The notes beneath the pieces are model-generated. The model saw nothing but the letters and a program-made list of their open reading frames with translations. It was not told where the DNA came from and ran no database searches. Both the position numbers and the translations under genes were made by a program. A DNA stretch of 48,912 bases from an uncultured Candidatus Saccharibacteria bacterium (GTDB lineage: Bacteria; Patescibacteriota; Saccharimonadia; Saccharimonadales; UBA4665), in assembly GCA_964533425.1 (NCBI GenBank), contig CAZHJG010000002.1, positions 1 to 48,912 on the forward strand, read 5' to 3'. Positions 1 to 40,568 of the stretch are shown in pieces (the stretch's first letter is position 1; each line of letters opens with the position of its first letter).

Positions 1-2
1 GC

Positions 3-467
3 CCAACTTTATCATTCTCGGTTTCGCCAAACTCAGCCAATGTGGGTAGCTTTTTGCCAAATACCATCGTCACCAGCCCTAACATATCGTTCACCTATGC
101 TACCAACGGTGCTTCCGGGGGCGGCATTTACGTGATGGGTAAAAATTCCGGCTTCTTCAGCACCTCAAAAAGTTTCACCATATCAGCTGTGACTGGCGAC
201 TTGAGCTCCCTGAGCCAGGGCTTTGGTATTCAGGCAACCAACCCCAGCCAGACTTCAGGGGGACCGCTAACTACCGTCAGTCCTTATAATGGTAGCGGCA
301 ATAACGTTGGGGCAGAGTCCACCACCTTTGCTCAAATGTTTACAACCAGCGCATCGATTATTGGCGGTACGGCTACAGCAAATGTGCAAGTAAAAGCCCC
401 GCAAACCGCGCCGCCTGCTTCTGACTACAACGAAGTCTTTACTTTTATTGCCTCGGCTAGCTTTTAA
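3..467 (+). CDS. Secreted WxL-like surface protein, 5'-truncated by the window edge (C-terminal ~155 aa)
   Basis: The frame is open from base 3, with no stop before the GTG listed at 42, so the ORF runs off the left edge. It follows the layout of the C-terminal half of the paralogs at 1723 and 2848: PTLSFSVSPNS vs PTFTLSLSGST, and terminal DYNEVFTFIASASF vs DYTDTITVIGTGSF. Confidence 0.6.
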   Translation, partial: PTLSFSVSPNSANVGSFLPNTIVTSPNISFTYATNGASGGGIYVMGKNSGFFSTSKSFTISAVTGDLSSLSQGFGIQATNPSQTSGGPLTTVSPYNGSGNNVGAESTTFAQMFTTSASIIGGTATANVQVKAPQTAPPASDYNEVFTFIASASF

Positions 468-497
468 TAAACAAAAAGTTAACATGTTAAGTGTGTT

Positions 498-1589
498 ATG
501 AGTGCGCCACGTCCGTTATACTACATAGCCATGAAGCAGTGGAGACGTGCTATAAGCCTGTTGCTGGCAGTATCTATAGTTACTGGCTTGGCTAGTATGC
601 CGGGTACGGCTCACGCCGCTGGTAGCGGGATCAGTCTCACGACTTCTCCAGTTTCGCTTGATCTAATGGTGCAGTCCGGAACCAGTGTGACGCGCACCTT
701 GCTCGTCATGAATAATGGAACGACACCGGTAAAAATCACCATGCAACTGGATGAATTCAGCGCCAAGGGTACCGACGGCCAGGCCATTATTACCCAACCA
801 GCGCCCAACGATCCTTCTCCCGGCTGGGTCAGCTTTTCGCCGAAAAGCTTTATTGCCCAGCCAAGCGTCTGGATGCCTGTAAAAATGACCATCAACCTGC
901 CCAAAAATGCCCAACTGGGTTATTACTATGCTGCGGTCTTTGCGCCTGACATTGGCACCAAAGCCGGCAATCACACTAATGTCATTAAGGGTAGTAACGG
1001 TATTTTGGTGCTGGTGGACACCCAATCTGGCAATGAAAAGCGGACCGTTGATATTGCAAGTTTCACGAGCAGCAAAAAAATTTACGAATACTTACCAGCG
1101 TCATTTACCGTTAGCGTACATAATAATGGCAATATCTACCTGGCGCCCTATGGCAATATCTACATCAGCAAAAGCGCTGACTCCACCCACACTATCGATG
1201 TCCTGAAAGTGAACCCGAACGGTGGGAACGTGCTGCCAGATTCATATCGGAATTTTAGCGCGACCTGGAGCAATGGCTCACCGGCCTTTGTCAATAAAAC
1301 AATTGCCGGCCAGGCAGTCAGGGATAAATCAGGCCAACCGGTGCAACGCCTCAGCTGGGATTTCTCGCACGGCAAAAAACTTCGCTTTGGAAAATATTAC
1401 GCCAAACTAACGCTGATATATAACAATGGCAAGCAGACCATTCCGCTGACGAGTACAATTTCGTTTTGGGTATTGCCGTGGAAGATAATTGGCGGCTTCA
1501 TAATTGTATTGGCGGCGATCATTGCTGGCCTGTGGTTCGGGCGGGAACGTATTGGAAGGGCTTTGAAGGTTTTGGCTGGCAAAGCGTAA
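498..1589 (+). CDS. Membrane-anchored cell-surface protein with DUF916/DUF3324-like (CscA-type) architecture
   Basis: 363-aa ORF. The signal peptide reads best from the Met at 531 (MKQWRRAISLLLAVSIVTGLASMPGTAHA). It has two beta-rich halves, then a C-terminal TM helix (IIGGFIIVLAAIIAGLWF) and a basic tail (GRERIGR). The family call rests on architecture and loose motif resemblance only. Confidence 0.6.
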   Translation: MSAPRPLYYIAMKQWRRAISLLLAVSIVTGLASMPGTAHAAGSGISLTTSPVSLDLMVQSGTSVTRTLLVMNNGTTPVKITMQLDEFSAKGTDGQAIITQPAPNDPSPGWVSFSPKSFIAQPSVWMPVKMTINLPKNAQLGYYYAAVFAPDIGTKAGNHTNVIKGSNGILVLVDTQSGNEKRTVDIASFTSSKKIYEYLPASFTVSVHNNGNIYLAPYGNIYISKSADSTHTIDVLKVNPNGGNVLPDSYRNFSATWSNGSPAFVNKTIAGQAVRDKSGQPVQRLSWDFSHGKKLRFGKYYAKLTLIYNNGKQTIPLTSTISFWVLPWKIIGGFIIVLAAIIAGLWFGRERIGRALKVLAGKA

Positions 1590-1655
1590 ATTTTCGCCAC
1601 CCTTGATAAACGTGGAAATAATCCACAGAAAAGACAAATAAAGCACCCAAAATAG

Positions 1656-1682
1656 TTGACTTCATCAAACTTATGCTAAAAT
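1656..1682 (+). promoter_or_regulatory. Candidate sigma70-type promoter for the WxL-like gene at 1723
   Basis: TTGACT (1656-1661), a 15-nt spacer, then TGcTAAAAT (extended -10, hexamer 1677-1682). An upstream AAAGACAAA motif is shared with the region before the paralog at 2848. Confidence 0.35.
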
Positions 1683-1722
1683 GTGGGCAGTACCTCGAGA
1701 AACATTAAGAAAACATTAAATT

Positions 1723-2742
1723 ATGAAAAAAATGACCCGGGTGAGAATACTGATACTTGCGCTGGCGCTAGTGCTGGCAAACTTTACGTTCGTCATTCCT
1801 AAAGTATTTGCTGGCACACTCACCAAAACCAATATTTTAGAAATTGGCGGGGCCAGTAATGCCAATCCAATGATTGTTAGTGACGGTCAGCAAGTAGCAA
1901 TTGACTTTAAAACCGTAGGTGCTGGTGCCACCACCGCATCGGTAAACTTCAACAACTTTAGTGGTGGCACAGTTAATACCACACAAAGTATTAGCAGTAC
2001 CGGCTGTACAACGTATTTCCCTAATGCCACATTGCTGCCGGGCGGCTCTCTGGCTGCCTCGGGTTCCGGCACTACCGTCAGTATTACTGGCATTACTGCG
2101 CTGTCGGCCACGACTGAATACTGTACAATTTTGACTTCCACGACCGCTGTTACTAATCCCAGTGGCGGTGGCGTATACAGCGCGCTAGTAACTGTCGGTT
2201 CAGATAGCCAGAACGCAGCATTTGATGTACTGGCTTCTGGTGCCAACGCTTACTCAATCACCGGTACTGTTGCACCAACCTTTACCTTGTCACTGAGCGG
2301 TTCGACTGACTCTTTCTCGGGCAACCTCTCAGCCTCTGCCCTTACCCTTTCAAGCGGTATCACTGCCACGGTGAATACCAACGCTCCCTCGGGGTGGAGC
2401 CTGTATGCCAAAGATAGCAATGCGGGGTTGACGTCGGCCTCGGCTGGCCACACCATCGCCTCAGTTTCGCCGGGCAGTAACATAACCATGAACGGCGGTG
2501 CGATCGGCACCGAAAAATACGCCCTAGGTGTCAGCGCTAATAACACCACCAACTATGCCTACAACAGCGGCACCACCGGTGGCGGACTCAGCAGCACAGC
2601 CTTCAACCAAATCGCTACCAGCGCCTCAGCCGCCAATGGAGTCACCCAGGTTCTACACGAACTGACGGATATCTCAGCCACCACCCAACCTGGCGCTGAC
2701 TATACAGACACTATCACCGTCATTGGTACTGGTTCCTTCTAA
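1723..2742 (+). CDS. Secreted WxL-like surface protein, tandem paralog 1
   Basis: 339 aa. Signal peptide MKKMTRVRILILALALVLANFTFVIPKVFA. It has a single W-x-L motif (PSGWSLYAKDS), a Ser/Thr/Gly-rich beta-type sequence, two Cys, and a C-terminal strand PGADYTDTITVIGTGSF. By eye about 80% identical to the next gene. Confidence 0.7.
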   Translation: MKKMTRVRILILALALVLANFTFVIPKVFAGTLTKTNILEIGGASNANPMIVSDGQQVAIDFKTVGAGATTASVNFNNFSGGTVNTTQSISSTGCTTYFPNATLLPGGSLAASGSGTTVSITGITALSATTEYCTILTSTTAVTNPSGGGVYSALVTVGSDSQNAAFDVLASGANAYSITGTVAPTFTLSLSGSTDSFSGNLSASALTLSSGITATVNTNAPSGWSLYAKDSNAGLTSASAGHTIASVSPGSNITMNGGAIGTEKYALGVSANNTTNYAYNSGTTGGGLSSTAFNQIATSASAANGVTQVLHELTDISATTQPGADYTDTITVIGTGSF

Positions 2743-2786
2743 ACCGCTTTTACAAACAAAAATAAACAGGAAAGACAAAATCGCGC

Positions 2787-2815
2787 TTGACTTTAAAACG
2801 GTTATACTAATAATT
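2787..2815 (+). promoter_or_regulatory. Candidate promoter for the WxL-like gene at 2848
   Basis: TTGACT (2787-2792), a 17-nt spacer, then ATAATT (2810-2815). The same AAAGACAAA...TTGACT arrangement occurs upstream of 1723. Confidence 0.3.
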
Positions 2816-2847
2816 AATTGCAGGATTAACTTAAAACAAAAACAAAT

Positions 2848-3870
2848 ATGAAAAAAAGTAAGTTCTCAAAAGCTAAGATTTATTTTTTGGTGTTGGCACT
2901 CGTACTTGCCAATGCCGTGGTTCTGCTACCAAAAGCTTCAGCCAGCACACTGACCAAGACGTCTATCCTTGAGCTGGGCGGAGCCAGTAATGCTAACCCC
3001 ATGATAGCCAGCGATGGCCAGTCGTTTGCACTAGATTTCAAAACCGTGGCTTCTGGCGCCACGTCAGTAACCGTTAATTTCAATAACTTCAGTGGTGGCT
3101 CTGTAAACGCTACCCAAAGCGTCTCCAGCACCGGCTGTACCACTTACTTCCCGAACGCCACATTATTACCTGGCTCGCTGACAGCAGCTGGCTCCAGCAA
3201 CACTATAACTATCAGCAACGTCACAGCTCTATCGGCCACCACCGAATACTGTACCGTCCTGACTTCCACGAGTGCTGTTACCAACCCGGCCTCACCTGGT
3301 GTCTATGGTGCACTAGTAACCGCAGGTTCAGACAGCCAGAGCGTGGGCTTTGACGTGCTTAATTCTGGCGACAACGCCTACTCCATCACTGGTACTGTTG
3401 GTCAGACCTTCACCTTGTCGCTTAGTGGCAACACCGACTCCTTCCCCGGTAATCTGTCCGCTTCCGCTCTAACCGTTTCCAACGGCATTACAGCCACAGT
3501 AAGCACCAACGCAAACTCCGGCTGGAGTTTGTATGCCAAAGATTCCAACGCCGGTCTAAACTCCACCAGCGCTGGCCACACGATCGCTACAGTGTCGCCA
3601 GGCAGCAACGTGACCATGAACGGTGGGGCAATCGGTAGTGAGAAGTACGCGTTAGGCGTCAGCGCTAACAACACCACCAACTATGCCTACAACGCCGGCA
3701 CCACTGGCGGTGGTTTGAGCAACACAGCCTTCAACCAAATCGCTACCAGCGCTTCCGCCGGCTCTGGTGTGACCCAAGTGCTGCACGAATTAGCTGATAT
3801 TTCTTCCACGACCCAGCCTGGCGCCGACTACACCGATACGGTTACTGTCATCGGTGCTGGCTCATTCTAG
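2848..3870 (+). CDS. Secreted WxL-like surface protein, tandem paralog 2
   Basis: 340 aa with a signal peptide. Long identical blocks are shared with 1723..2742 (GGASNANPMI, VNFNNFSGG, STGCTTYFPNATLLPG, SGWSLYAKDSNAGL, KYALGVSANNTTNYAYN, TQPGADYTDT). Ends in VIGAGSF. Confidence 0.7.
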   Translation: MKKSKFSKAKIYFLVLALVLANAVVLLPKASASTLTKTSILELGGASNANPMIASDGQSFALDFKTVASGATSVTVNFNNFSGGSVNATQSVSSTGCTTYFPNATLLPGSLTAAGSSNTITISNVTALSATTEYCTVLTSTSAVTNPASPGVYGALVTAGSDSQSVGFDVLNSGDNAYSITGTVGQTFTLSLSGNTDSFPGNLSASALTVSNGITATVSTNANSGWSLYAKDSNAGLNSTSAGHTIATVSPGSNVTMNGGAIGSEKYALGVSANNTTNYAYNAGTTGGGLSNTAFNQIATSASAGSGVTQVLHELADISSTTQPGADYTDTVTVIGAGSF

Positions 3871-3893
3871 AACGCATCCTATATACTGGTTAG

Positions 3894-4868
3894 GTGATAA
3901 TTGCCGCGAGACGGTTACGCTTGGGCGGGTTGGCTATGCTTCTGGCGCTGCTGTCGATGAGTGCCGCCTATGCGGCTGGTCCGACTTCGGCCTCAACAAC
4001 CTCAAACCTGTCTGTTTCTCCGGCCATTGAGCAGCTCAATTTGAGCCCAAATCAGGACACCGTATCTTTCCAAACCACAGTTGTTAATAACAGCTCTGCG
4101 CCGGCTACAATTCAGGTTCAAATGAGCGACTTCACGGCCCTGAACACCACCGGAAGCGTGTCATTCCTAGGCACCCATTACAAGAATAGCAATCTACATG
4201 GGCTGGCGCAGTCAATGCACGTTGCCAATCCTACGTTGGTGGTGGGTGCCAACTCCAACCAAACAGTGCCAATTACGATTACCAACGCCAGTCATTTGGC
4301 CCCCGGCGGGCATTATGGCGCAGTAATTTTTAAAATTCTGCCAACACCGACCTCTCTGCACGGTAGTGGGTTATCGACCAATGAGGAAGTATCTGTCCTA
4401 GTATTTCTCACTACGTCCAGTGGTCGCACTCAAACCATTTCCCTAAGTAATCCGCAACTTAATACTATAGCCACTAAATTTCCCAGCACGCTCAATCTTG
4501 ATTTTGCTAACACCGGTAACACGCAGACTACGCCTCACGGAATAGTCACGCTTACTAACAACCAAAATCAGGAATTAGCGCGGGGAATTATCAATGTTGA
4601 CTCGGGCCTGGTTCTGCCCGCTACTGACCGGTTGTACCAGGTTAACCTGATATACTCCAAGCACACTTTTACCCCCGGTTGGTATAAGCTTCATGTGACA
4701 TATCAAGCCGACGCCGGGCTGCGTCAAATCACTTACACGAAACGCTTCTTTTACCTGAGCCGTACGCTGTTATGGCTGACAGTACTGTTGGTCTTGCTCG
4801 CCCTCGCTACCAGCTCATATCTAGCCCATAGAGGCTACAAAAAGTATCGACTTCGACCCAAACCGTAA
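3894..4868 (+). CDS. Second membrane-anchored DUF916/DUF3324-like cell-surface protein
   Basis: 324 aa with a GTG start. Signal peptide (LAMLLALLSMSAAYAAGP), a two-domain beta-rich body, a C-terminal TM helix (LLWLTVLLVLLALATSSYL) and a basic tail (HRGYKKYRLRPKP). Same layout as 498..1589. Confidence 0.6.
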   Translation: MIIAARRLRLGGLAMLLALLSMSAAYAAGPTSASTTSNLSVSPAIEQLNLSPNQDTVSFQTTVVNNSSAPATIQVQMSDFTALNTTGSVSFLGTHYKNSNLHGLAQSMHVANPTLVVGANSNQTVPITITNASHLAPGGHYGAVIFKILPTPTSLHGSGLSTNEEVSVLVFLTTSSGRTQTISLSNPQLNTIATKFPSTLNLDFANTGNTQTTPHGIVTLTNNQNQELARGIINVDSGLVLPATDRLYQVNLIYSKHTFTPGWYKLHVTYQADAGLRQITYTKRFFYLSRTLLWLTVLLVLLALATSSYLAHRGYKKYRLRPKP

Positions 4869-4928
4869 GCGGCATTGTTCTCCCCTGTTAAATCTGCTAT
4901 AGTTTAAGGGGGAAAATAAGAAAGATTT

Positions 4929-7900
4929 ATGTTGAGTAAACGAGGCGTTGTGCTTGGCGTAGCCACTGTATCGCTGGGTTTACTTTTTTCTGTTTTTGGA
5001 CTGTTATTATCACCAGAGAAGACCGCGGCGGTCACCGGCATAAACCAGGAGGTCAGCTTCGAGGGTAAGATTGTCGACGGCTCAGGCTTGAACCTGGCCG
5101 ACAACACCTACAACATGGAATTTAAGATCTACACGGCGGCCGGTTCCTGTAACCCGACCACTGGTGTAGGCTGCACCCTAGGCTGGACGGAAGACTGGCT
5201 GGTTAGTGCCAGCCACGGCGTTACTACTTCCAGTGGTACGTTCGAAGTCAATCTAGACTCTATTGCGGCGAACAACTTCTCCGGCATCGACTTCAACACC
5301 AATCCACTTTATCTGTCGATCCAAGTTGGCAACACCTCATCTTGTACTCCGTCTGGCAACTTTACGGCAAACTGTGGTGGAGACGGGGAAATGAAGCCGT
5401 ACATCCTGCTGACTTCTTCGCCTTATGCCCTCAACTCTGGTTTACTCGGTGGCTTGGCGGCTTCTTCGTTCGGACAACTGGCCGCCAACGAAACCTTTAC
5501 TGGTACCAATACCTTTCAGCCGACCACTAATATCACCTCTGTTAAAATCCTTCAAAATTCCTCCGGCTCCTTTGGCCAAGACGTTTTTGATGTCCAAGGC
5601 TCTGGCGGTGCCAGCAACTTTATTCAGGTGACCAGTACGGCGGCCAACCAAGGCGCTGTAACTATTCAGTCTTTGGGATCAAATGCTCTAAACCTGAATT
5701 CCGGGTCCAACACTGTATCTGTTGGCGCCACGAATATTACCGGAACCGGAGCGCTCACCGTGGCGGCCGGTGGTTCAGCCACAAACCTCGACCTGGAAGG
5801 TGCCACCACCGGTTCGGTCAGCGTGGGCACGAGCGCTAACAACAAGACGGTCAACATCGGTGCGGTTGGCTCAACGGCCAACACTACCACGCTGAACCTG
5901 GCCAACTCAACCGGAGCCGCGCAAACTGTAAGTATTGGCTCGACGAATACGACCAGCTCCACCACCATAAAAGGCGGCACAGGCTCTGGCGCCGGCGGCA
6001 TAATTCTTAACCCCGGTGGTGCGTCTAACTCCGGCGTTGTCGTTATGCCCAGCGCGGACTCCACGGCGGTTTTCCAGATTCAAAACGCGTCCAGTAGCTC
6101 GTTGTTCAACGTTGATACCAACGGATTGAATATCGCCCTGAACGGTAATATAACCGTAAGCGGTGCTGGCAGCACACTGTTTTCGGACGGTTTCGAATCG
6201 GGCACCATGGGTGCTTGGACGAATACCGGCATGACGGTGCAAACTTCTACGGTGCATTCCGGTGCTGACGCTGCGCAAGCTGCTTATACCGCCGGTTCCA
6301 CTAAATTCGCCACCGGCAACTTGTCGAGCAGCTCGTCCTCTGTCTATTACCGGGCCTATGTCTACATTGCCGGCAACACCAATAGCAATGGTAACGACCT
6401 CATGCAGGTCATCGCTTCCGCCAACGCTTTCACGGTGTTTATCACTAACAGTGGCAGCGGCAACGTTGTTTGTTTATTCAACAGCGTGACGTCAGGTAGT
6501 ACCTGCGGCACGGCGACTATGTCCATTACCACTTGGCACGAGATGGAACTGCGCGTTAACACCGGAACCAGCGGTAGTTGGCAGCTCAGTATGGATGGCA
6601 TATTGGTAGCTAGCGCAAGCGGCGTCAACATGGGCTCATCAAATGCAACCTCGATCGAGATCGGTGAAGGCAACGCTGGCAAGAGCAGCCTGACCAGCAA
6701 CTACGATGATGTGCTCGTCACAGGCAACGTCGCATCGTTTACTGTGAACGGGCCTTCTACGCTGGGCGGCAGTGTGCTGGCCAAGCCTGTTTCCGACAGC
6801 ACAAGTGCTTTCCAGATTCAGACTAGTACCGGCAACAATCTACTAGCTGTCGACACCACTAATAGTCAGATCATTTTAGGCAAAGCAGGGACGCTAACCG
6901 CAAAGCTGGTCTTAGCAAGTAGCGGCTCAAGCAGCTTCACGGCCTCGATTCAAGCCAATGCTAGCCCTACCGCAAATATAAACTGGGTACTACCAGCCGC
7001 AGACAGCGCCGGCTGCTTGCAATCCAACGGCTCCGGCACCTTATCGATTGCAGCTTGTGGTGACACGCACGTCGACGATTTAACCGCGACCACTGCAACC
7101 TGGAATAAACCGACCAATGCCTTATTGCTGATCGTCGAATTGATTGGCGGCGGAGGTGGCGGCGGAGGTGGCGGCGGAGGTAGCAGCGGCACCACGGCCG
7201 CGACCGGCGGCGGTGCAGGCGGAGGTGGCGCTTACGTAACTAAAACTTTTGCGGCTTCAAATGTGGCCGCGGGAAACCAGACTATTACCGTTGGCGCTGC
7301 GACAGGTAACGCAGCCGGCGGCACGAACACTACGGGAACCAATGGCGGCGGCGGTAATAGCACCACTTTCTTAACAACGCCGATTCTAACGGCCTTCGGC
7401 GGCGGCGGCGGCTCCAGAGGCAACAACAGCGCCACCCTGTCCGGTGGTGGTGGCGGCGGCGGCTCCACCGGAGCCGGCTCTTCATCGGCATCTTCGGCGA
7501 CCGGCGGAGCAGGCGGATTGCCTGGTCTAACGGCTGCTGCAACCGGTGCCGCTGCTGGCGCCCCTGGTACACAGAACCCAGGCAACGGCGGAGGAGGTGG
7601 TGGTAATGGTGCTGCCGGCGGTAATGGCGGCTTAGCCAACTGGGGTGGCGGCGGTGGAGCCGGATCGAACCTTGGTGGTACAGCTGGTAACGCTGGCGGT
7701 AGCTCAGGGCACGGCGCGGCAGGCGGCGGTGCCGGCGGCAGCTGTGCGGCGACTTGCGCTGCGACAGCCGGTGGTGCCGGTGGTGCTGTTCCTTCTGGTG
7801 CTGCCGGTGGTGGCGGAACTGCAGGCGCTGCTGCTTCATGTGCTACTACAGGTTCAGGTGGTGCTGGAACGGCAAGTACTAGCATGTACGGCGGTGCTGG

Positions 7901-9407
7901 CGGTGGCGGTGGAGCGAGCATTGTCGCTGGCGCGGGCTGTACAGGTGGCGCAGGTGGTGCTCCTGGTGGCGGTGGAGGCGGGGGTGGCGCCTCAGGCTTG
8001 TCTTCGGCCGCTGGCGGAACAGGCGGCGCTGGGGCGCGAGGCGAGGCCAAGATTTGGACACTGCGGGGGGCAGGAGCCGACCTTGCAGAAATCTACTGCA
8101 CAAACGACGCACAGTTACAGTCGGGTGACACAGTTGCCATAGATCCTACACTCAAGGCGGGTGTCCAAAAAACAGCCAAGGCTTATGACAAGAACGCGGT
8201 AGGCATAATTTCAACTAATCCAGGTCTGGTTACCGGTAGCGTAGAAGACCAATGCGTCAAACCTGTGCTCGTAGCCTTATCTGGACGTGTGCCGGTTCAT
8301 GTCTCAATGGAAAACGGCCCAATCCAACCCGGCGATTACCTGACACCCTCCTCCACACCAGGGGTGGCCATGAAAGCTACTAAAGCAGGCCTAATAATCG
8401 GGCAAGCTCTAACAGGTGATGACGGCAGTATGCCCCCAGACGACCAATTCGTAGTGGCCTTCGTTAAGAACGGTGATTACAATGGCAGCGGAATCAACGA
8501 TGTCGTGCCACAGACTACTCCAGTCGATTCCTCCACTGATTCATCTGCAACTGCTGCGCCGGACGAAGAAATGCAAGCTCTGCGGTACTTCATGGGTTGG
8601 AAGAACCAAGCTGTCGATACCAGCGATCTGACATCGGATGGGCTATCCGAAGTCATGACCGACCGCATAAGCGCCGATGTTGACGTCATAACGCCTTCGG
8701 TAATCGCCGATAAAGTTGCCACCAATACCATCACCCCGTCAACCACCGGCAACATAACGATTGATCCAGGCCAAAACGGCAGCGTCTTCATCAAGAATAA
8801 GAACGGTGATAACAGCTTCAGCATCGACGCCGATGGCAACGCCCAATTTGGTGTTGACCTGAATGTGCTCGGAAAGATGGAGGTTGGCGGCGATTTAACT
8901 ATCAACGGCGATTCGCTGTTTGGTGGCAACGCCACCTTTGCCAAGATGGCTCAATTCCTTGGGGACACAACATTCAACGGCGATGTGAATGCCAACGGCC
9001 GCGTGACCTTCAACAATGATGCCGGCGGCATCGCTATTATTAAGGACGGTGACACTCGCGTTAACGTTAAATTTGGTAAAGAATATGCTCAATCGCCTAT
9101 CATCACTGCGTCACTGGTATCAGACCAGGTACGCTTAAGCGATGGTACCATCGAAGATCCGCAGCTCAAAGAACAACGTTTGTTTGACGCCGGCTACAAC
9201 TACTTAGTTTCCAATGTGACCACCAAAGGCTTTACAATAGTATTGAGCAAGAAGGCGGCGGAGGACATTCAGTTCAACTGGTCAGCTGTGGCAGTCAATA
9301 ACGCTAACACCTTCACGTCAAGCCAAAACGGTGCTCCATCGGGCGGTACAACCAACAATACCTCGACCAATGACAACTCACCTTCATCAACCTCATCAGG
9401 ACCGTAA
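4929..9407 (+). CDS. Giant (1492 aa) N-terminally anchored fibre-like surface protein with a lectin/LamG-like domain and a glycine-rich block
   Basis: SD AAGGGGGA lies upstream of the ATG. There is an N-terminal TM/signal anchor (VVLGVATVSLGLLFSVFGLLL). An N-terminal module (INQEVSFEGKIVDGSGLNLADNTYNMEFKIY...PYALNS) resembles those in tail-fibre-like proteins. A FESGTMGAWTN...YDDVLV segment looks concanavalin/LamG-like. A Gly/Ala-rich block of ~300 aa spans nt 7140-8050. A C-terminal module reads DLAEIY...VALSGRVPVHVSMENGPIQPGDYLTPS. Confidence 0.85.
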   Translation: MLSKRGVVLGVATVSLGLLFSVFGLLLSPEKTAAVTGINQEVSFEGKIVDGSGLNLADNTYNMEFKIYTAAGSCNPTTGVGCTLGWTEDWLVSASHGVTTSSGTFEVNLDSIAANNFSGIDFNTNPLYLSIQVGNTSSCTPSGNFTANCGGDGEMKPYILLTSSPYALNSGLLGGLAASSFGQLAANETFTGTNTFQPTTNITSVKILQNSSGSFGQDVFDVQGSGGASNFIQVTSTAANQGAVTIQSLGSNALNLNSGSNTVSVGATNITGTGALTVAAGGSATNLDLEGATTGSVSVGTSANNKTVNIGAVGSTANTTTLNLANSTGAAQTVSIGSTNTTSSTTIKGGTGSGAGGIILNPGGASNSGVVVMPSADSTAVFQIQNASSSSLFNVDTNGLNIALNGNITVSGAGSTLFSDGFESGTMGAWTNTGMTVQTSTVHSGADAAQAAYTAGSTKFATGNLSSSSSSVYYRAYVYIAGNTNSNGNDLMQVIASANAFTVFITNSGSGNVVCLFNSVTSGSTCGTATMSITTWHEMELRVNTGTSGSWQLSMDGILVASASGVNMGSSNATSIEIGEGNAGKSSLTSNYDDVLVTGNVASFTVNGPSTLGGSVLAKPVSDSTSAFQIQTSTGNNLLAVDTTNSQIILGKAGTLTAKLVLASSGSSSFTASIQANASPTANINWVLPAADSAGCLQSNGSGTLSIAACGDTHVDDLTATTATWNKPTNALLLIVELIGGGGGGGGGGGGSSGTTAATGGGAGGGGAYVTKTFAASNVAAGNQTITVGAATGNAAGGTNTTGTNGGGGNSTTFLTTPILTAFGGGGGSRGNNSATLSGGGGGGGSTGAGSSSASSATGGAGGLPGLTAAATGAAAGAPGTQNPGNGGGGGGNGAAGGNGGLANWGGGGGAGSNLGGTAGNAGGSSGHGAAGGGAGGSCAATCAATAGGAGGAVPSGAAGGGGTAGAAASCATTGSGGAGTASTSMYGGAGGGGGASIVAGAGCTGGAGGAPGGGGGGGGASGLSSAAGGTGGAGARGEAKIWTLRGAGADLAEIYCTNDAQLQSGDTVAIDPTLKAGVQKTAKAYDKNAVGIISTNPGLVTGSVEDQCVKPVLVALSGRVPVHVSMENGPIQPGDYLTPSSTPGVAMKATKAGLIIGQALTGDDGSMPPDDQFVVAFVKNGDYNGSGINDVVPQTTPVDSSTDSSATAAPDEEMQALRYFMGWKNQAVDTSDLTSDGLSEVMTDRISADVDVITPSVIADKVATNTITPSTTGNITIDPGQNGSVFIKNKNGDNSFSIDADGNAQFGVDLNVLGKMEVGGDLTINGDSLFGGNATFAKMAQFLGDTTFNGDVNANGRVTFNNDAGGIAIIKDGDTRVNVKFGKEYAQSPIITASLVSDQVRLSDGTIEDPQLKEQRLFDAGYNYLVSNVTTKGFTIVLSKKAAEDIQFNWSAVAVNNANTFTSSQNGAPSGGTTNNTSTNDNSPSSTSSGP
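7146..7181 (+). repeat. Perfect tandem repeat (GGCGGCGGAGGT)x3 encoding poly-Gly inside the giant gene
   Basis: Three identical 12-nt units at 7146-7157, 7158-7169 and 7170-7181, in frame. They mark the start of the GC-rich glycine block. Confidence 0.95.
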
Positions 9408-9410
9408 TAA

Positions 9411-9857
9411 GTGAAACAGAAGAAGTCAAAAGCCAAGCCAATCATGGATGTTATGCCCGCCAGGCAGGGTGCACGCACCGTTCAGCTACCTGAATTTCTG
9501 ACAGCAAAATTTCTAGGGATAGCTGCCGCAGTCGTAGTCGTTATCATAGTCATTGTTCTAGTGGTCAGCCACTATTCAAATAAATCGGCAGGCGGTCAAA
9601 AGCAGATAAATGACACCGTAGCCAAAGTAAGCAAACTTTTCCTTGTGCCGCAAGGCGAGCAGCCAACCCTGGCTATTATTAATGATGCTAGTAAGTACAA
9701 AAATATAACATTCTTTAAAGATGCTGCCAACGGCGACCGTTTGTTGATCTATGCGCAGGCCAGGGAAGCAATTCTCTACCGGCCAAGTATCAATAAAATC
9801 ATCGCTGTTGCTCCACTGAACCCGGGCACGGCTCCGACTACAACAAACACACGGTAA
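9411..9857 (+). CDS. Single-pass membrane protein, hypothetical
   Basis: 148 aa with a GTG start 1 nt after the giant gene's tandem stops. Basic N-terminus (KKSKAKPIMDVMPARQG), one TM helix (FLGIAAAVVVVIIVIVLVV) and a small C-terminal domain. Confidence 0.65.
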   Translation: MKQKKSKAKPIMDVMPARQGARTVQLPEFLTAKFLGIAAAVVVVIIVIVLVVSHYSNKSAGGQKQINDTVAKVSKLFLVPQGEQPTLAIINDASKYKNITFFKDAANGDRLLIYAQAREAILYRPSINKIIAVAPLNPGTAPTTTNTR

Positions 9858-10766
9858 TTAATGCAAGTTGTTGACGTACTTGTACACCATTGCTGATAAA
9901 TCCTTGATGTGTTTGTCGGCTGCCGGCCCGTCTTCGTTCAAAAGAATGCACAACGAGTAGTCTTTGTTGGGAACGTACACAATGCCACAGTCACTTTGAG
10001 TAATGTTACTAAAGGAACCAAGTTTACGAGCTACTAGCACATTGCTTGGTACGCCAGCCCGGATCCGGCTATTGTCATCGCTGTCCATAGTCAAGTAATT
10101 CAAGATAGATTGCGAGTCCTTTTCGTTCAAGAAACACGAGAAGTATAAGCATTGCAGCACGGAGTTATAGGAGCGTGAACTTATAAGCACCAGCGGCCCT
10201 TTATTGCTGTCACCGGCCTGCGTCTCGATGTCTAGATTATTCAGTGACTGGTCCGAAGCGGGTAGCAAGCCCTGCGTGGCATTAAAAATAGTGTAAGCGG
10301 CGGTATTATCCGACTCGCTGAGCGTAATCTTGGCCGCAGTATCTAAACGGACTTTTTGACCCGGCTTAAGATGCGCCAGGTTACCATACTTAGTGTCGTT
10401 GGAGTTGAGCGCACCACTTGGAACGGTAACTTCTTTACTTAACGAAATCTTGTTTTCCTCAACAGCCTTGTACAGATCCATAACGATAGGAATCTTCATA
10501 AGCGAAGCGCCAACCAGCTGATTGCTGTCGCCGTCACGGATTGTAGAACCCGTAAAGAGGTATTCGAAATAAAAGCTATGGTCAACGTTAGCCTTTGCCA
10601 AATAGCTCTTCACCTGATCTCTGAGTGGCTGGAAGTTGACGTCGTTATAGGCTGTTTTATCCTGAAAAAGACGGCTGGCAAGTAAGGGGTACTTATGTTC
10701 TTGCCTGTCAGCGCTCAAATCCGCGATTAAAAACACCGCCAGAACAATCGTGGCACACAGGAGCAC
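9858..10766 (-). CDS. Class A beta-lactamase-like serine hydrolase, membrane-anchored
   Basis: Shows an S-x-x-K motif (GASLMK), an SDN-type motif (SESDN) and a KTG-like motif (RKLGS), plus an N-terminal hydrophobic anchor. The start is uncertain. The listed GTG at 10766 lies ~35 nt from a strong SD (AAGGAGG). The in-frame upstream stretch ISKRLLYITSG has no canonical start codon. Confidence 0.7.
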   Translation of the reverse strand: MLLCATIVLAVFLIADLSADRQEHKYPLLASRLFQDKTAYNDVNFQPLRDQVKSYLAKANVDHSFYFEYLFTGSTIRDGDSNQLVGASLMKIPIVMDLYKAVEENKISLSKEVTVPSGALNSNDTKYGNLAHLKPGQKVRLDTAAKITLSESDNTAAYTIFNATQGLLPASDQSLNNLDIETQAGDSNKGPLVLISSRSYNSVLQCLYFSCFLNEKDSQSILNYLTMDSDDNSRIRAGVPSNVLVARKLGSFSNITQSDCGIVYVPNKDYSLCILLNEDGPAADKHIKDLSAMVYKYVNNLH

Positions 10767-33650: not shown

Positions 33651-35963
33651 GTGGCATACAACACTATGAGCGAAAAGCTTGACGTAAACTTGGCATTTGA
33701 CTACGAAGAACGGCACAGGGTTGAAGAAGAAGCCCGGAAGGCAGCCGAAGCAGCCGCTGAAGCTGAGCGCCAAGCCGCTGAAGAGGCTGCAGAAGCAGAA
33801 CGTCTTGAAGCTGAGCGCCGCGCCGCTCAAAAGGAGTGGGAAAGCTACGATATTCGTCAAGGCGACTTTCGCCCAAAGGATGATAAGCGTCGTGGCAACT
33901 TGGTAGACGATCGTATTCGTGGCGTTAAAGTTGACCGCCACACCTATTTACAGAACCGTTTGACCGAGGCTGAATATCCAGACTCAGAAGTCTCATCTTA
34001 CGCTGACTATGACATTGCTAAGCTAGCCGACAAACTAAACTCCATGCAAGAAGGCATAGCCAAGTTACCAACAGAAGGCAAGATCAAGTCCGGCAATAAA
34101 GAAAGTGCTGAAGAATACCTGGCAACAGACATACGGGCGCTGGCTCAAGTTGATGCTAACGAAGCGCGACTAGCCCTCCAAACTAAGCTGAGTGAAATGA
34201 AAATTTCTGAGCTGGCGAAGCAAGTTGCTCAAGCCCGACACGAGAATAATGGTGCGTTGGCTGAAAACGCCACTAAAATACTGAACCAAAAAATACAGGA
34301 GCGCAATGAAACGTTTAAGAGTCAGCGTGATAGCGAGCATAACGAAACGCGTGCTAATAACCTTAAGCAGCAAGTGGAAAAACTTATCGCTAAAGAAGAA
34401 GCCCGTAAGGCAGCCGAAGCCGCCGCTGAAGCTGAGCGCCAAGCCGCTGAATCAGAAACCCTAAATGATAGCCAGTCAGATGCTGTACCAGATGCTCAGC
34501 TTTCCCTTGATCATGATATAGCTTCAGAGCCTCATGCCGAGCCAACTGCAGCTGACCCCGTAACGAAACCTGAGGCTTCGGACGACAGTCAACCGGATGC
34601 CGTGTCGAAGGAACAGCTTTCTTTTGATGATCTGCCTTTCATACCCGAAGAAGTTGAAGTCCTTACTGGAGTTGTCGTCGATGAACCTGTTGCTGAATCA
34701 GGCAAAGCAGAACCCAAGTCAGATGATGATCAAGCACGTTTCTTCGAAACAGCAGAGCCGGCAATTGACTCCGACGCCGAAGAGGAACCTGATGCTCCTA
34801 AGCTTGATAATGCTGACGCGGCGCAGGCCGAAGCTGAAAGCAAAACCGACCCTGAACAGATCTCATACAAAATTGACAGCCTTGATAAGCGACGCCGATT
34901 AGTGGAGCGATTTACTGCTGATCAGCACGGCGAATTGAGTGTTGATCTTAAAGACTTATGGCCTTTAGGTAAACGGGTGCGTGAAGTATTGCTGAAGACC
35001 GAAAACGGAGTGCTCTACGTCCGTGAGAACAGATTGTTTAATGTAACTCCAGGTCAGGAGAAATCATTGGCCTATGAGGAAAAGACCGGTGACTTCCCTA
35101 TTATTAATTTGACTAATTCTTGGGCAGTTGTTCCCGGTACCATATCCATTCCCCCTATTACAGAAATTCTCGTCAGTAAGACTGAGGTGCTGTCGAGCGA
35201 TTCTGTTCTCACTGAGGCTACTCCCCTCGACGATGAGGACCCCTTTAAATATCCTCGTGTGGTTGCCGCACAGATATTAAAGGATAAAGAAAAGGAAAAA
35301 AATAGTCGCAGACTAAAGATGAGGCAAGATAAGCCGAAGCCACCGACCGATGATCCATCAAAGCCTGCCGCCAAGCCGAACTGGGACACAATCAGTCAGG
35401 AAGCGGTCGACCAGTCTCGTCGTCAACGGAACGTTCGTAACGTCTGGAAGACTATCTCAGGCAAGGTTACAAACTTCAGCCCGCGCGAATTCTATGGCAA
35501 TAATGAAAAGGGCACCAAACGCGCTCTAACCACGGCCCTTGGCGGCCTGGCAACCGTTGCCGCCACGCTTGGTATCGTTGGACCCGAATCCTTTAATGGC
35601 ATGAAAAACTCCATGCGGCGGCCTGTGTTAACTCAACCTGATAGGAAGCAAACTTCCACGCACACTAACCACTCATCTGCCGCCAGCTCAGGTCTCAATA
35701 TAAGCATGTCCCGCAGTAGTCGTAAACCATATCAGACCATTCACGTTCGTAAATCCCATCGTGCTTCATACGACAATGCTGCTCAGACCGGGAGCAATCA
35801 CTCGACTGGCACAACTGTTCCAGGCAGTCATGACGGACTGAACATTACCATGTCACGTAGTAGCGTAACCCCTGGTGAGCATAAGCGTGTGGCTACCTCG
35901 ATGGTGGAACCAAATCAGATTCCGGAACACATTTTGCGCGAGCTGATCAAAAAGAGCGCGTAA
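33651..35963 (+). CDS. Large acidic coiled-coil protein with a C-terminal TM segment, hypothetical
   Basis: 770 aa. The start is ambiguous (GTG 33651 or ATG 33666). EEARKAAEAAAEAERQAAE occurs twice, encoded by 59-nt direct repeats at 33724-33782 and 34393-34451 (57/59 identical). Other duplicated pairs are DSQSDAV/DSQPDAV and GLNISMSRSS/GLNITMSRSS. One TM helix (ALTTALGGLATVAATLGIVG). Confidence 0.8.
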   Translation: MAYNTMSEKLDVNLAFDYEERHRVEEEARKAAEAAAEAERQAAEEAAEAERLEAERRAAQKEWESYDIRQGDFRPKDDKRRGNLVDDRIRGVKVDRHTYLQNRLTEAEYPDSEVSSYADYDIAKLADKLNSMQEGIAKLPTEGKIKSGNKESAEEYLATDIRALAQVDANEARLALQTKLSEMKISELAKQVAQARHENNGALAENATKILNQKIQERNETFKSQRDSEHNETRANNLKQQVEKLIAKEEARKAAEAAAEAERQAAESETLNDSQSDAVPDAQLSLDHDIASEPHAEPTAADPVTKPEASDDSQPDAVSKEQLSFDDLPFIPEEVEVLTGVVVDEPVAESGKAEPKSDDDQARFFETAEPAIDSDAEEEPDAPKLDNADAAQAEAESKTDPEQISYKIDSLDKRRRLVERFTADQHGELSVDLKDLWPLGKRVREVLLKTENGVLYVRENRLFNVTPGQEKSLAYEEKTGDFPIINLTNSWAVVPGTISIPPITEILVSKTEVLSSDSVLTEATPLDDEDPFKYPRVVAAQILKDKEKEKNSRRLKMRQDKPKPPTDDPSKPAAKPNWDTISQEAVDQSRRQRNVRNVWKTISGKVTNFSPREFYGNNEKGTKRALTTALGGLATVAATLGIVGPESFNGMKNSMRRPVLTQPDRKQTSTHTNHSSAASSGLNISMSRSSRKPYQTIHVRKSHRASYDNAAQTGSNHSTGTTVPGSHDGLNITMSRSSVTPGEHKRVATSMVEPNQIPEHILRELIKKSA

Positions 35964-35987
35964 ACTAAAATATATTCAAGACAGTAA

Positions 35988-36016
35988 TTGACAAAAGAAC
36001 AAGTTTGGTGTAATAT
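35988..36016 (+). promoter_or_regulatory. Promoter (AATTGACAAAA type) for the vWA-MoxR operon, near-leaderless
   Basis: TTGACA (35988-35993), a 17-nt spacer, TAATAT (36011-36016). The ATG at 36027 lies 10 nt after the -10 box. The TTG listed as the ORF start is the -35 box itself. Confidence 0.55.
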
Positions 36017-36026
36017 AAAGATAATT

Positions 36027-36983
36027 ATGTTACCTGAAGTTTCACCAGAATTTGTCTACGTTGCTGCCACGACGCTTGGTGTCTTAGCTGGCGCCGGCAT
36101 GGAACATCTTGCTGTTGAGCAAGCCGCACAGCAAGAAGAAGATCACTATTATCCTGCATTGCAGATTGCATTGCAGGAAGAAGCCGCGGAAACTCAGGCT
36201 AAAGAAGTTTCAAAAATTTCTCGCCGTCAGATGTTAGGACAATGGCTCAGCCGAAGCGCGATCCGCTCTGTTTTGCCTATTACCGTGGCTGTCGGGTTTG
36301 GGCTGGTGGCACATTCCTTTACTTCTACGGAGAAGCCACAAAAGAAAACGGCAATTGAGATTAGTGTTGACGATTCTGGCGCCACCCGTCCGGTTATTGG
36401 ACAAATACGGGAAGTAGTCGCTCAGTTTAATAATACTGACGCTGAAGCTATTGTTGGCAACACAGGTCAAGTTATCTCTATGTCATCTCGCAAGTTCGGT
36501 CCGTTTACCGAAACAACTGATGGCGCTCCTGCCGGAGAAGCTCCCTTAAGTCAGCAAGTCAGTCTGGCGCTCAACCGTGTTGCCGAAAGTAACACCAAAA
36601 ATGGCAAAGACGATGGCAGGATTGTTCTTGTTACTAATGGTAATCGCGTGGGTAGCATCAAGGCTCTGGCGGAGCAGGCAAAACTGCAACATACAGCTAT
36701 CTATCCAGTTAACGTGGAACGAAAAGGTACGCCACACAGTCTGATTGATCAACTGAAGCAGTTAGCCGATGAGACCGGCGGCCAGTTCAGAGATGCTAAT
36801 AGCCAGAACTTTGAGAGGGTGGCTAAAGACGTCAAAGCGACAACTGCGCCCGAGCAAGCCCCAACCCCGCAACCCGATCGCTGGCCGGAACGCTTCAGCG
36901 GCATTCTAGCCCTGTTCGGCGCTGGATTGGTTTATAAGAATCGTAAACGCATGCCTACGGGTAGGAATGCGAAAGGAGAATAA
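36027..36983 (+). CDS. Membrane-anchored protein with a degenerate vWA-like domain
   Basis: N-terminal TM (FVYVAATTLGVLAGAG), a second TM (VLPITVAVGFGLVAH) and a C-terminal TM (FSGILALFGAGLVY). A MIDAS-like but degenerate motif reads ISVDDSGAT. IVLVTNGN replaces the usual LLTDG. Ends 2 nt before the MoxR gene. Confidence 0.6.
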   Translation: MLPEVSPEFVYVAATTLGVLAGAGMEHLAVEQAAQQEEDHYYPALQIALQEEAAETQAKEVSKISRRQMLGQWLSRSAIRSVLPITVAVGFGLVAHSFTSTEKPQKKTAIEISVDDSGATRPVIGQIREVVAQFNNTDAEAIVGNTGQVISMSSRKFGPFTETTDGAPAGEAPLSQQVSLALNRVAESNTKNGKDDGRIVLVTNGNRVGSIKALAEQAKLQHTAIYPVNVERKGTPHSLIDQLKQLADETGGQFRDANSQNFERVAKDVKATTAPEQAPTPQPDRWPERFSGILALFGAGLVYKNRKRMPTGRNAKGE

Positions 36984-36985
36984 GT

Positions 36986-38005
36986 ATGGCAGTTATATAT
37001 GAAGCAGTTGAGCAAATGGCAAGCACTAACCAGGTTCTTGGCTACTATGAAGACGGTATGCGTGAGCTAGGTAAGCTCTTATATGGAGAGGAACACGCAA
37101 AACAGGCTATACTTATCGGTCCTGTCATTATGCGCGCAGCGTTACTTTCGGGCATTCCAGCCGGTGGTAAATCTACTTTGATGCAAAATGCTTGGAGGCT
37201 GTATGACGGGCTTGACGATGATAACGTTGCTCGAATTCCTGGCCAGCACGACTTACAGGCTACTCAGCTGGTAGGCGGTCAGATCGGTACTAAAAAAATA
37301 GTCGCCGGCCGCAGCGAGGAAAGTAAGGTTGTTGTGGAAGGTATGGTTAAAGAGAAGACTCAAGGTCTCGTTATTGAAGAAATGAACCGTACCAATCCAG
37401 AGGCCGTGAACTCACTTTTGCCCGTTCTGGAAGATCGGCGCCTGGAAACTACGGCTGGACACATCGAAGTGCCTGGTCTGATATATACGGTTGCCGCTAT
37501 GAACCCATCTGAATCTAAGCAGTCAACTTTTCCGATTTCTGATGCTATGGCCTCTCGTTTTACTTTAGGCGCTGTGCTTGGTGTAAAGGGTAATCGTGAG
37601 GAGCGCATCTATAAAGCTGGTAAAATTCGCGAACACAAGAAGAACCCGAACACTAAGCCGGAAAATATTCAGCCCGTCTACAAAGTATCGGCCTTATCGG
37701 GACTTCAAAACTATGTTCAGGAAACTCGGATTGGCGAAACAATGACCGGCAAAATTGATGAAATTACCGTTGATGCTAACGACGTGCTTGAGAGCCACGG
37801 TATCCATGAGACCGACAATCGTTTGTCCCTTCACCTCGAGGCTAATGCTAAAGCATTGGGTAGTTTCCGGAATGAAGAACACATTATTCGCGAAGAAGAT
37901 GTTGTAGACGCCATCTATCTAGCATTGGCGGGCCGCTTTGGGGCCAAGAAGCAGACCAATGGCATAAACTTGGATAGTTTGGCTTACGATATTGCAAAAT
38001 TCTAG
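36986..38005 (+). CDS. MoxR-like AAA+ ATPase
   Basis: Walker A GIPAGGKST, Walker B-like LVIEEMNR, SLLPVLEDRRLET, YTVAAMNPSE, SDAMASRF. The order and spacing match the MoxR/AAA_3 pattern. Confidence 0.8.
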   Translation: MAVIYEAVEQMASTNQVLGYYEDGMRELGKLLYGEEHAKQAILIGPVIMRAALLSGIPAGGKSTLMQNAWRLYDGLDDDNVARIPGQHDLQATQLVGGQIGTKKIVAGRSEESKVVVEGMVKEKTQGLVIEEMNRTNPEAVNSLLPVLEDRRLETTAGHIEVPGLIYTVAAMNPSESKQSTFPISDAMASRFTLGAVLGVKGNREERIYKAGKIREHKKNPNTKPENIQPVYKVSALSGLQNYVQETRIGETMTGKIDEITVDANDVLESHGIHETDNRLSLHLEANAKALGSFRNEEHIIREEDVVDAIYLALAGRFGAKKQTNGINLDSLAYDIAKF

Positions 38006-38028
38006 CTGAGTATAACAGGCAAATTCAA

Positions 38029-38877: not shown

Positions 38878-38917
38878 AGCAGCGCGTAAGCTTAAGCAAG
38901 TTTGTTATAGTATATAA

Positions 38918-38946
38918 TTGACAAAAAATGAAGAGAGTGATATACT
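38918..38946 (+). promoter_or_regulatory. Promoter (AATTGACAAAA type) for the Gly-rich / LVNTG gene pair
   Basis: TTGACA (38918-38923), a 17-nt spacer, TATACT (38941-38946). It leaves a leader of ~120 nt. Confidence 0.55.
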
Positions 38947-39005
38947 CAAAAAGATAAAACCATACAGAGGTCGAATACGAATCTCCGCATGAGTAAGAAG
39001 GTAAG

Positions 39006-39043: not shown

Positions 39044-39074
39044 ACCAAGGTATTAAAGGAGTTAGAGGAGCAAT

Positions 39075-40544: not shown

Positions 40545-40568
40545 AACTAAATGACTAAGGAGATAATC

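Follow-up and report, generated by a model that had tools for sequence, protein, structure and literature searches.

The first 9,857 nucleotides of a Saccharibacterial contig (CAZHJG010000002.1, assembly GCA_964533425.1) carry a run of genes for secreted and membrane-anchored proteins, which raises the question whether a member of this class encodes a surface complex built like the csc/WxL systems of Gram-positive bacteria. The whole stretch of DNA that was analysed, referred to below as the window, is 48,912 nucleotides long. A previous interpretation made from the letters alone (the sequence-only reading) had described positions 1-9407 as a csc-like locus with three small WxL-like proteins, two membrane-anchored DUF916/DUF3324-like proteins and a giant phage-fibre-like protein. 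The results presented here give a divided answer. Profile comparisons indicate that the two anchors are divergent members of the WxLIP family, and the gene set is conserved across Saccharibacteria; the small secreted proteins are not WxL proteins by any sequence test and belong to a new family with a pilin-like C-terminal domain.

The locus comprises seven genes on one strand

Listing of the open reading frames (ORFs) showed that the locus (1-9857) consists of seven plus-strand genes, named A to G, of which A is partial; they are separated by gaps of 3-133 bp.

3-467, plus strand: A, partial A-type subunit gene, C-terminal domain only; the 5′ part lies beyond the start of the window
498-1589, plus strand: B, WxLIP-like protein of 363 amino acids
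1723-2742, plus strand: C, secreted two-domain subunit of 339 amino acids
2848-3870, plus strand: D, tandem paralogue of C, 340 amino acids
3894-4868, plus strand: E, WxLIP-like protein of 324 amino acids
4929-9407, plus strand: F, giant surface protein of 1492 amino acids
9411-9857, plus strand: G, small single-pass membrane protein of 148 amino acids

The strand and gene order given by the sequence-only reading were reproduced and its six genes are real, but G had been missed. Its statement that every product carries a signal peptide or an anchor was also borne out for each full-length product by a hydropathy scan, in which N-terminal leaders were found in B, C, D and F; A is cut off by the window edge, and a look-up of the exact sequence of B returned no DNA from further upstream. 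No LPXTG motif is present in any of the seven products.

B and E as divergent members of the WxLIP family

B consists of a leader, two immunoglobulin-like (Ig-like) halves, a C-terminal transmembrane helix (residues 320-338) and a basic tail, and E consists of a leader, a DUF916-like domain, a second Ig-like domain and a C-terminal transmembrane helix (residues 285-303) followed by the basic tail RGYKKYRLRPKP. This agrees with the two beta-rich halves, C-terminal helix and basic tail that had been proposed for the two proteins. WxLIPs are about 320-380 amino acids long and possess a leader and a C-terminal transmembrane helix; B and E, with 363 and 324 amino acids, a leader and such a helix, fall within this description.

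The Pfam model PF06030 (WxLIP_PGBD, formerly DUF916) matched E with an E-value of 2e-5 and 25.0 bits, below the cut-off of 27.3; the match covers residues 48-147 of E and positions 21-120 of the 121 in the model. The same model matched 21 of 29 relatives of B and E (best E-value 1.1e-7), while B itself gave no direct Pfam match. Many relatives carry a precomputed PF06030 match, and one from Candidatus Mycosynbacter amalyticus bears the NCBI name 'DUF916 domain-containing protein'. A permissive tblastn search with a B/E relative against 72,556 plasmids returned 12 records, all in Enterococcus or Streptomyces, and every one of the 12 fell on an annotated DUF916 or DUF916+DUF3324 gene.

For profile comparison, a reference set of six Enterococcus WxLIP proteins and ten WxL domains was taken from annotated loci. 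The hhalign result showed that the B/E family aligns with the six WxLIPs at 97.3% probability (E-value 2.4e-11) over 283 columns, which span both Ig-like domains and run into the membrane helix. E-type sequences alone aligned at 95.9% over 218 columns (template positions 66-296) and B-type sequences alone at 90.5% (E-value 1.4e-6) over 158 columns, covering the first domain only; the two types aligned with each other at 99.9%. Direct matches of a hidden Markov model (HMM) of the B/E family included a Streptomyces DUF916 protein (6.5e-17) and, at 1.8e-9 to 8e-6, the Enterococcus WxLIPs. The relationship to DUF916/DUF3324 proteins that the sequence-only reading saw in B and E is thus supported by the Pfam match on E and 21 relatives and by the hhalign alignment, and, as judged from these profiles, B and E are true homologues of the Firmicute WxLIP (DUF916, DUF3324 and a transmembrane helix).

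B and E are, on the same kind of evidence, to be regarded as divergent within the family, because PF11797 (DUF3324) had no direct match on B, E or their relatives, and because the motif NQIDKxxxYFDLK, conserved in the N-terminal part of WxLIPs (PMC10599100), is not present in B/E, where SPAIEQxxL stands at the aligned place. The PF11797 model was effective on an Enterococcus WxLIP used as positive control (2.6e-48). Within the B/E family, 16 positions are kept in at least 90% of 117 sequences, and an arginine of the second domain (R246 in E) is near-invariant, being found in 109 of the 117; as a speculation, this arginine might receive the terminal carboxylate of a client protein. Sequence searches of the PDB with the C profile, the B/E profile and a bridging relative yielded nothing above noise, the matches being to antibody light chains, designed Pizza proteins and transmembrane helices.

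DUF916 proteins are also encoded by a plasmid of Streptomyces sp. ADI95-16 (record L087, 5677-6630) and by five other Streptomyces plasmids. The Saccharibacterial B/E profile scores these proteins (6.5e-17) above the Enterococcus WxLIPs, which reach 1.8e-9 at best, and no WxL or C-family gene adjoins their genes. Cultured Saccharibacteria grow on Actinobacteria, so that an exchange between host and epibiont lineages is worth checking.

Sequence tests do not place A, C and D among the WxL proteins

C consists of a leader, an N-terminal Ig-like domain (residues 31-175) with two invariant cysteines and a C-terminal pilin-like domain (176-339). C and D share 78% protein identity (87% in the C-terminal domain) and about 72% DNA identity, with no long identical tracts indicating ongoing gene conversion, and the pair is an old tandem duplicate. 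A is a distant paralogue of both (C-family HMM, E-value 1e-10). The three proteins are called clients below.

The sequence-only reading had taken the clients for WxL-like proteins sharing a W-x-L motif (GWSLY) and had proposed profile searches as a check. The Pfam WxL model (PF13731) gave no match on A, C or D at an E-value of 1 or below, and none on the 42 close and 60 distant members of the family (0/102), while Enterococcus small WxL proteins, used as positive controls, were found at 7e-58 and 1.6e-49. Alignment of the client family with the ten Enterococcus WxL domains by hhalign reached 0.1% probability, the same as mismatched controls, and the C-family HMMs found nothing in Enterococcus WxL loci even at an E-value of 10. 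The NCBIfam models likewise gave nothing for A-F.

Inspection of the motif led to the same result. A WxL domain is defined by two Trp-x-Leu motifs on adjacent strands, with an Asp eight and an Arg six positions before the first Trp (W1-8 and W1-6; PMC9772566). GWSLY, which contains W-S-L, occurs once in C (residue 225) and once in D (residue 226), and the positions before it are an invariant T-N rather than the WxL-type Asp and Arg. A contains no Trp and hence no W-x-L motif, so the motif is shared by C and D but not by all three proteins. The sole local hhalign alignment sets GWSLY on the first WxL motif, GWKLS, but is not significant, and the C-terminal strand reads T-I-T-V-I-G in the clients versus T-L-T-W-E-L in WxL proteins. 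No sequence test thus identifies A, C or D as a WxL protein, and the assignment of the small proteins as WxL-like is not supported. As in WxL proteins, the client domain is located at the extreme C-terminus of secreted proteins, in small as well as large forms.

The client domain weakly resembles pilins in fold and has an invariant aromatic end

An AlphaFold2 model of C, built on a 42-sequence alignment, showed two all-beta domains with a predicted local distance difference test score (pLDDT) of 90. The best PDB matches of this full-length model were MSCRAMMs, integrin legs, transglutaminase and FimH, with template modelling (TM) scores of about 0.2. The MSCRAMM adhesins (ClfB, FnBPA and SdrG N2-N3) were the top Foldseek matches at E-values of about 1e-6; with a TM score of only about 0.2, no LPXTG motif and no sequence similarity, the likeness is that of two generic Ig-like domains in tandem, and membership of C in the MSCRAMM, integrin or transglutaminase families was rejected.

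The C-terminal domain modelled alone (residues 176-339) reached a pLDDT of 94.6 and a predicted TM score (pTM) of 0.88. Its best PDB matches were donor-strand pilins, with E-values of 8e-3 to 0.4 and TM scores of 0.4-0.54. The leading ones were CfaB of CFA/I pili (E-value 8e-3, probability 0.99) and CsuA/B and CsuE of the archaic Csu pili (TM score to the target up to 0.54); CS17, the FimH pilin domain, FimG and PapE followed, with TasA lower in the list. As the scores are weak, the model points to a fold class, not to membership in a pilin family.

The terminal strands ending in Phe that had been noted in the sequence are as described: VIGTGSF in C, VIGAGSF in D and IASASF in A. This ending is general, since all 102 family sequences end in [G/A]-x-G-x-[F/Y], 97 with Phe and five with Tyr, whereas the Enterococcus WxL proteins of the reference set have variable tails past the last motif. 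The client domain is always found at the very C-terminus, every profile match reaching the last residue. Mean pairwise identity is 55% in the C-terminal domain, 49% in the N-terminal domain and 70% over the last 20 residues, and in many genomes the C-terminal domain is the sole recognisable part of a C-type protein. The domain also closes large multi-Ig proteins with TIG or Big_5 repeats, such as P0370 (936 amino acids, TIG repeats) and P0388 (784 amino acids). Short database entries that might have passed for single-domain 'small' client proteins look like fragments and were set aside. The client domain thus behaves like an anchoring module. The family is new, and its occurrence beside B and E indicates that a WxLIP can be paired with a pilin-like partner that is not a WxL protein.

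The gene set is conserved across Saccharibacteria

A search with C returned 338 homologues at an E-value of 0.001 or below, all hypothetical or unnamed and all encoded in metagenome bins of Saccharimonadales or Patescibacteria. When one genome per species was scanned, 80 loci were obtained, nearly all titled Saccharibacteria or Saccharimonadia. The organism is therefore a Saccharibacterium, which fits the reduced bacterium suspected by the sequence-only reading.

Conservation of gene order, a further check that had been proposed, was assessed by running HMMs built from the family alignments on the ORFs of all loci, with the counts given as fractions limited to loci with enough flank. A B/E-type gene was found within 3 kb of C-type genes in 66 of 67 Saccharibacteria loci, an A-type gene upstream in 40 of 70, an F-type N-terminal module downstream in 25 of 52, and a G-type ORF after F in at least 15 related loci. 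The commonest order is A, C (one to three copies), B, E, F, G on one strand; in the locus studied here B lies between A and C. A-type genes at full length encode 340-357 amino acids and are the leading gene in the majority of related loci. Such an arrangement goes far past what chance would give. With the client C-terminal domain as profile, an exhaustive search gave 510 clusters at 50% identity, and the B/E profile search gave 1261 proteins. The locus is a real gene cluster and a major conserved feature of the class.

Some of the loci deserve separate mention. Two bins titled 'uncultured Pseudomonadales bacterium' (L055 and L083) carry the full Saccharibacteria-type locus and are probably mislabelled or contaminated; in L055 a B-type ORF of 722 amino acids looks like two fused anchors. 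An ENA metagenome scaffold of the candidate phyla radiation type (L001, 1593-9002) carries a second kind of cluster, with two WxLIP-type genes among those of five other secreted proteins, which include PKD and Vgb_lyase/DUF11 proteins, the remainder having no family. HMM and Pfam searches found neither a C-family nor a WxL protein in this cluster, so that, in this lineage, more than one client family seems to be served by anchors of the WxLIP type.

F and G

F has an N-terminal hydrophobic segment, a conserved module at about residues 15-360, a variable beta-rich stalk, a Gly/Ala-rich tract of about 330 residues (about 720-1050) and a C-terminal region with a weak H-type-lectin-like match. Comparison of 37 F-type proteins (600-2263 amino acids) showed that only the first approximately 350 residues are shared and the rest is variable, so that F has a conserved base and a variable tip. 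The HMM search found no client-type (C-family) C-terminal domain in F. The following matches were obtained on F.

Gly_rich_2, E-value 1.3e-3: the Gly/Ala-rich tract
phrog_6427, E-value 8.6e-7: a phage family of unknown function
Peptidase_G2, E-value 0.19
H_lectin (H-type lectin), E-value 1.3e-4: terminal, 22.5 bits against a cut-off of 24

A large secreted fibre-like protein is present, as had been suggested, but the phage likeness ascribed to it rests on the weak phrog_6427, Peptidase_G2 and H_lectin matches. A prophage or tail-fibre origin of the locus was rejected because PHROGs had no match for C or E and BFVD nothing significant for the client C-terminal domain, because the rest of the window carries four tRNA genes and ordinary chromosomal genes (for amylases, a Mur ligase, a histidine kinase and pyruvate kinase), and because synteny is kept in 80 genomes. 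The Gly/Ala-rich tract lifts the local G+C content to about 0.60 at 7080-8080, and spurious Pro-rich antisense ORFs lie opposite it (for example 7232-8050, minus strand, 272 amino acids); these are not genes.

G starts 3 bp past F and has a basic N-terminus, a transmembrane helix (residues 26-44) and an external domain of about 90 residues. NCBIfam gave a match to the SAG1386/EF1546 surface-associated protein of streptococci and enterococci at an E-value of 0.012, which covers mostly the membrane helix and is probably not meaningful.

Comparison with known surface systems

WxL/WxLIP (csc) clusters have been described in Lactobacillales and Bacillales (Siezen 2006, PMC1534035; Hassan and Williamson 2022/2023, PMC9772566, PMC10599100). 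B and E share with WxLIPs the leader, the two Ig-like domains, the C-terminal transmembrane helix, the basic character and the size of about 320-365 amino acids. The order in Enterococcus loci is small WxL, WxLIP, giant protein; the same logic is followed here, and the giant surface protein adjoins a WxLIP gene in both. The differences are equally clear. The organism is a Saccharibacterium and not a Firmicute, there are two WxLIP paralogues in the locus instead of one, and they are without the NQIDKxxxYFDLK motif. The clients are non-WxL by sequence, with at most one W-x-L and an invariant Phe/Tyr end. Real large WxL proteins carry the partner-type domain at the C-terminus, whereas F has a conserved N-terminal module, and the LPXTG protein (CscD) of Enterococcus loci has no counterpart with that motif, its slot as the small anchored protein being taken by G. 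Hassan et al. recognise a WxL cluster by at least one WxLIP and at least two WxL proteins; the locus has WxLIPs in B and E and three clients, none of them WxL. The description of the locus as csc-like therefore holds for the WxLIP-type anchors and the overall gene logic seen in Enterococcus, but not for the clients or for the design of F.

Chaperone-usher pili (CfaB, CsuA/B-CsuC, type 1 and P pili) are the other system of comparison. Their pilins are the best, if weak, fold matches of the client C-terminal domain, their PapD-like chaperones resemble B and E in having two Ig-like domains, and the subunit C-terminus is strictly conserved in both. The partners here are, in contrast, membrane-anchored WxLIP homologues, and there is no outer membrane or usher: Saccharibacteria are described as monoderm, and ORF and family scans of the window found no large beta-barrel gene in or near the locus.

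A cluster that appears related by annotation, SEML1_0625-0628 of Candidatus Southlakia epibionticum ML1, is found in supplementary tables only and is not discussed in the paper concerned (Wang et al. 2023, Cell, Table S1/S2; PMC10633639). It encodes a DUF916-like protein, a small neighbour with a predicted WxL-like/CsuE-like fold, a giant surface protein and a small Ig-like protein. Unlike the present locus, it has only one DUF916 gene, a small protein of 188 amino acids with just one domain, and a giant protein composed of RCC1 and FN3 repeats. In the structure annotation of S. epibionticum, which independently agrees with the fold matches of the client domain, the first domain of the DUF916 protein was assigned to Caf1M (ECOD) and the neighbour to CsuE, with a 'WxL domain-containing protein' as its best AlphaFold-DB match (PMC10633639). 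Because this neighbour receives both annotations, the WxL-like fold and the Csu-pilin-like fold may, by analogy, be the same thing seen from two sides.

A proposed surface complex and its alternatives

Taken together, we slightly favour the view that the locus encodes a non-covalent cell-surface complex that would work on the WxL/WxLIP (csc) principle with a different client family. B and E would be exported and tethered in the cytoplasmic membrane by their C-terminal helix, each with its two Ig-like domains exposed on the outer side. The clients A, C and D would be secreted, and B or E would capture their pilin-like C-terminal beta-sandwich with its free terminal aromatic residue, leaving the variable N-terminal Ig-like domain of the client facing outward. 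Because B/E are homologous to WxLIP and the clients are analogous to WxL, this capture would probably occur by beta-strand addition as for WxLIP-WxL, where a hairpin of the WxLIP is predicted to become ordered as a strand and so to complete the sandwich of the WxL domain (PMC10599100); a WxLIP-WxL complex is present in the PDB (9i25), for which the literature search found no paper. F would be a long fibre held at its conserved N-terminal module, in which G and E may take part, and its variable distal end may bind sugars. By means of the assembly the cell would attach to a host or a substrate. The results show the gene set and its conservation, the WxLIP homology of B and E, the topology signals, the fold class and invariant end of the client domain, and the conserved base and variable tip of F; the contact between B/E and the clients, the pairing of particular anchors with particular clients and the attachment role are what we infer.

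This complex is the favoured explanation because of the linkage in 66 of 67 loci, the WxLIP homology, the same layout in real WxL loci, the known strand mechanism, the anchor-like behaviour of the client domain, the conserved N-terminal module of F with its variable remainder, and the chromosomal rather than prophage context. The isoelectric points (pI), about 10 for B and E and 4.8-4.9 for A, C and D, show a charge complementarity between anchors and clients that also speaks for it. Several results weigh against it, namely the missing DUF3324 match and N-terminal WxLIP motif in B/E, the failure of the Pfam, hhalign and HMM searches to connect the clients with WxL domains, and the absence of 9i25 from the best 50 fold matches of the client domain (with full-length C, 9i25_C ranked 31st at TM scores of 0.17-0.21). 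To these is added the finding that all four SEML1_0625-0628 genes were non-essential by transposon insertion sequencing (Tn-seq) in co-culture, one of them giving a growth advantage when disrupted (PMC10633639). These data do not support an essential part in attachment to the host for the S. epibionticum cluster; steady co-culture is no test of host finding.

The fold matches could instead be taken to mean that the locus makes a donor-strand pilus or fibre of a monoderm cell, in which C and D as major subunits and A as a minor one polymerise head to tail by strand exchange, B and E, tethered in the membrane, cap the subunits as PapD-like chaperones or as platforms for assembly, the near-invariant arginine may grip the C-terminal carboxylate, and F is a tip or base fibre. 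The sequence-only reading had likewise suggested that the two-domain anchors could be platforms on which the Phe-terminated subunits are assembled, which would fit the pilin-like fold. The best matches of the client domain are all donor-strand pilins, the full-length C model also matches FimH, the terminal aromatic residue is invariant (102/102) and the arginine is kept in 109 of 117 B/E proteins; an operon with multi-copy major subunits and a minor one looks pilus-like, and the nearest ECOD domains in S. epibionticum are the chaperone Caf1M for the DUF916 protein and CsuE for its WxL-like neighbour. These matches are, however, weak (E-value no better than 8e-3, TM scores of 0.4-0.54), and beta-sandwiches match easily. 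The model of the isolated client domain is confident and its fold complete even though no strand is donated, an N-terminal extension of clearly alternating pattern is not seen, and the locus contains no usher, sortase or other polymerase candidate. We consider such a fibre fairly unlikely. The specific filament in which B/E act as chaperone and platform, C/D and A are major and minor subunits and F is an adhesive tip is improbable; if true, it would mean that the WxL/WxLIP clusters of Firmicutes, instead of being simple wall-binding proteins, are related to chaperone-usher assembly.

The clients might also be true WxL domains that have diverged greatly, making the locus a distant orthologue of the Firmicute csc/WxL cluster that binds peptidoglycan through the C-terminal domains. 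The WxLIP-homologue partner, the C-terminal position of the domain, the small and large forms, the single W-x-L on a strand of the client domain, the alignment of GWSLY on GWKLS (not significant) and the 'WxL domain-containing protein' as best AlphaFold-DB match of the S. epibionticum neighbour are all in line with this. It is doubtful in view of the nulls with PF13731, hhalign and the HMMs, the missing second motif and the missing Asp and Arg before the first, the lack of Trp in A, the place of 9i25 outside the top 50, and the invariant terminal Phe, which has no counterpart in the Enterococcus WxL reference sequences. Least of all do we expect C and D to be the main proteins of a surface-layer-like (S-layer-like) coat held by B and E, with F as an unrelated co-transcribed adhesin. 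The clients are acidic, rich in Thr, Ser, Ala and Gly and present in multiple paralogous copies, the N-terminal domain of C resembles the coat-forming BslA (TM score 0.58 to the target), and the family is widespread in the class; there is, on the other side, no sign of lattice formation or high abundance, F/G accompany the other genes in roughly every second locus, and the literature search found no S-layer protein named for Saccharibacteria.

Significance of the locus

Saccharibacteria and other Patescibacteria live attached to host bacteria. To our knowledge, the structures so far tied to this epibiotic lifestyle are limited to type IV pili, a type IV secretion system and some scattered adhesins, and the locus is a probable second surface apparatus, widely conserved in the class. 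Given its modular logic, in which conserved anchors and a docking domain are combined with variable outward domains and a variable giant fibre, it is a candidate for recognising a host or substrate that can be put to the test, with the caution that the related S. epibionticum cluster is dispensable in laboratory co-culture.

Nearly all of the WxL literature concerns Lactobacillales and Bacillales, to which it assigns the system, and the literature search found no paper discussing a WxL/WxLIP system in Saccharibacteria, the traces being automatic names and supplementary-table rows. UniProt, for example, gives Saccharibacterial proteins such as A0A563CGG3 the name 'WxL domain-containing'. The anchor family is known; the client family, the two-anchor arrangement, the giant-protein design and the phylum are new for this system. 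The WxLIP family thus reaches beyond Firmicutes to Saccharibacteria and, by automatic annotation, to Streptomyces, and the pairing of a WxLIP with a non-WxL pilin-like client bears on how WxLIPs work in Enterococcus and Listeria pathogens.

Promoters and neighbouring genes

Promoter and terminator scans of the region gave counts at background. Promoter-like hexamers lie in the gap between B and C (1594-1622) and in that between C and D (2787-2814), the latter being TTGACT-16-AATAAT with a 10/12 match; with the regional hexamer count at background, they hint at most at separate promoters for C and D.

Adjoining G in convergent orientation is a minus-strand gene (9858-10766) for a beta-lactamase-family protein (PF13354, 1.7e-26) with an N-terminal hydrophobic segment. 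Further along the window, a same-strand gene run at 33651-41747 resembles MoxR/VWA-type operons. A Pfam scan of its 770-, 331-, 339- and 489-amino-acid products gave no match on the 770- and 331-amino-acid proteins, and the order of the run is 770-amino-acid protein, 331-amino-acid protein, MoxR-type AAA ATPase (36986-38005) and proteins of 282, 489 and 398 amino acids.

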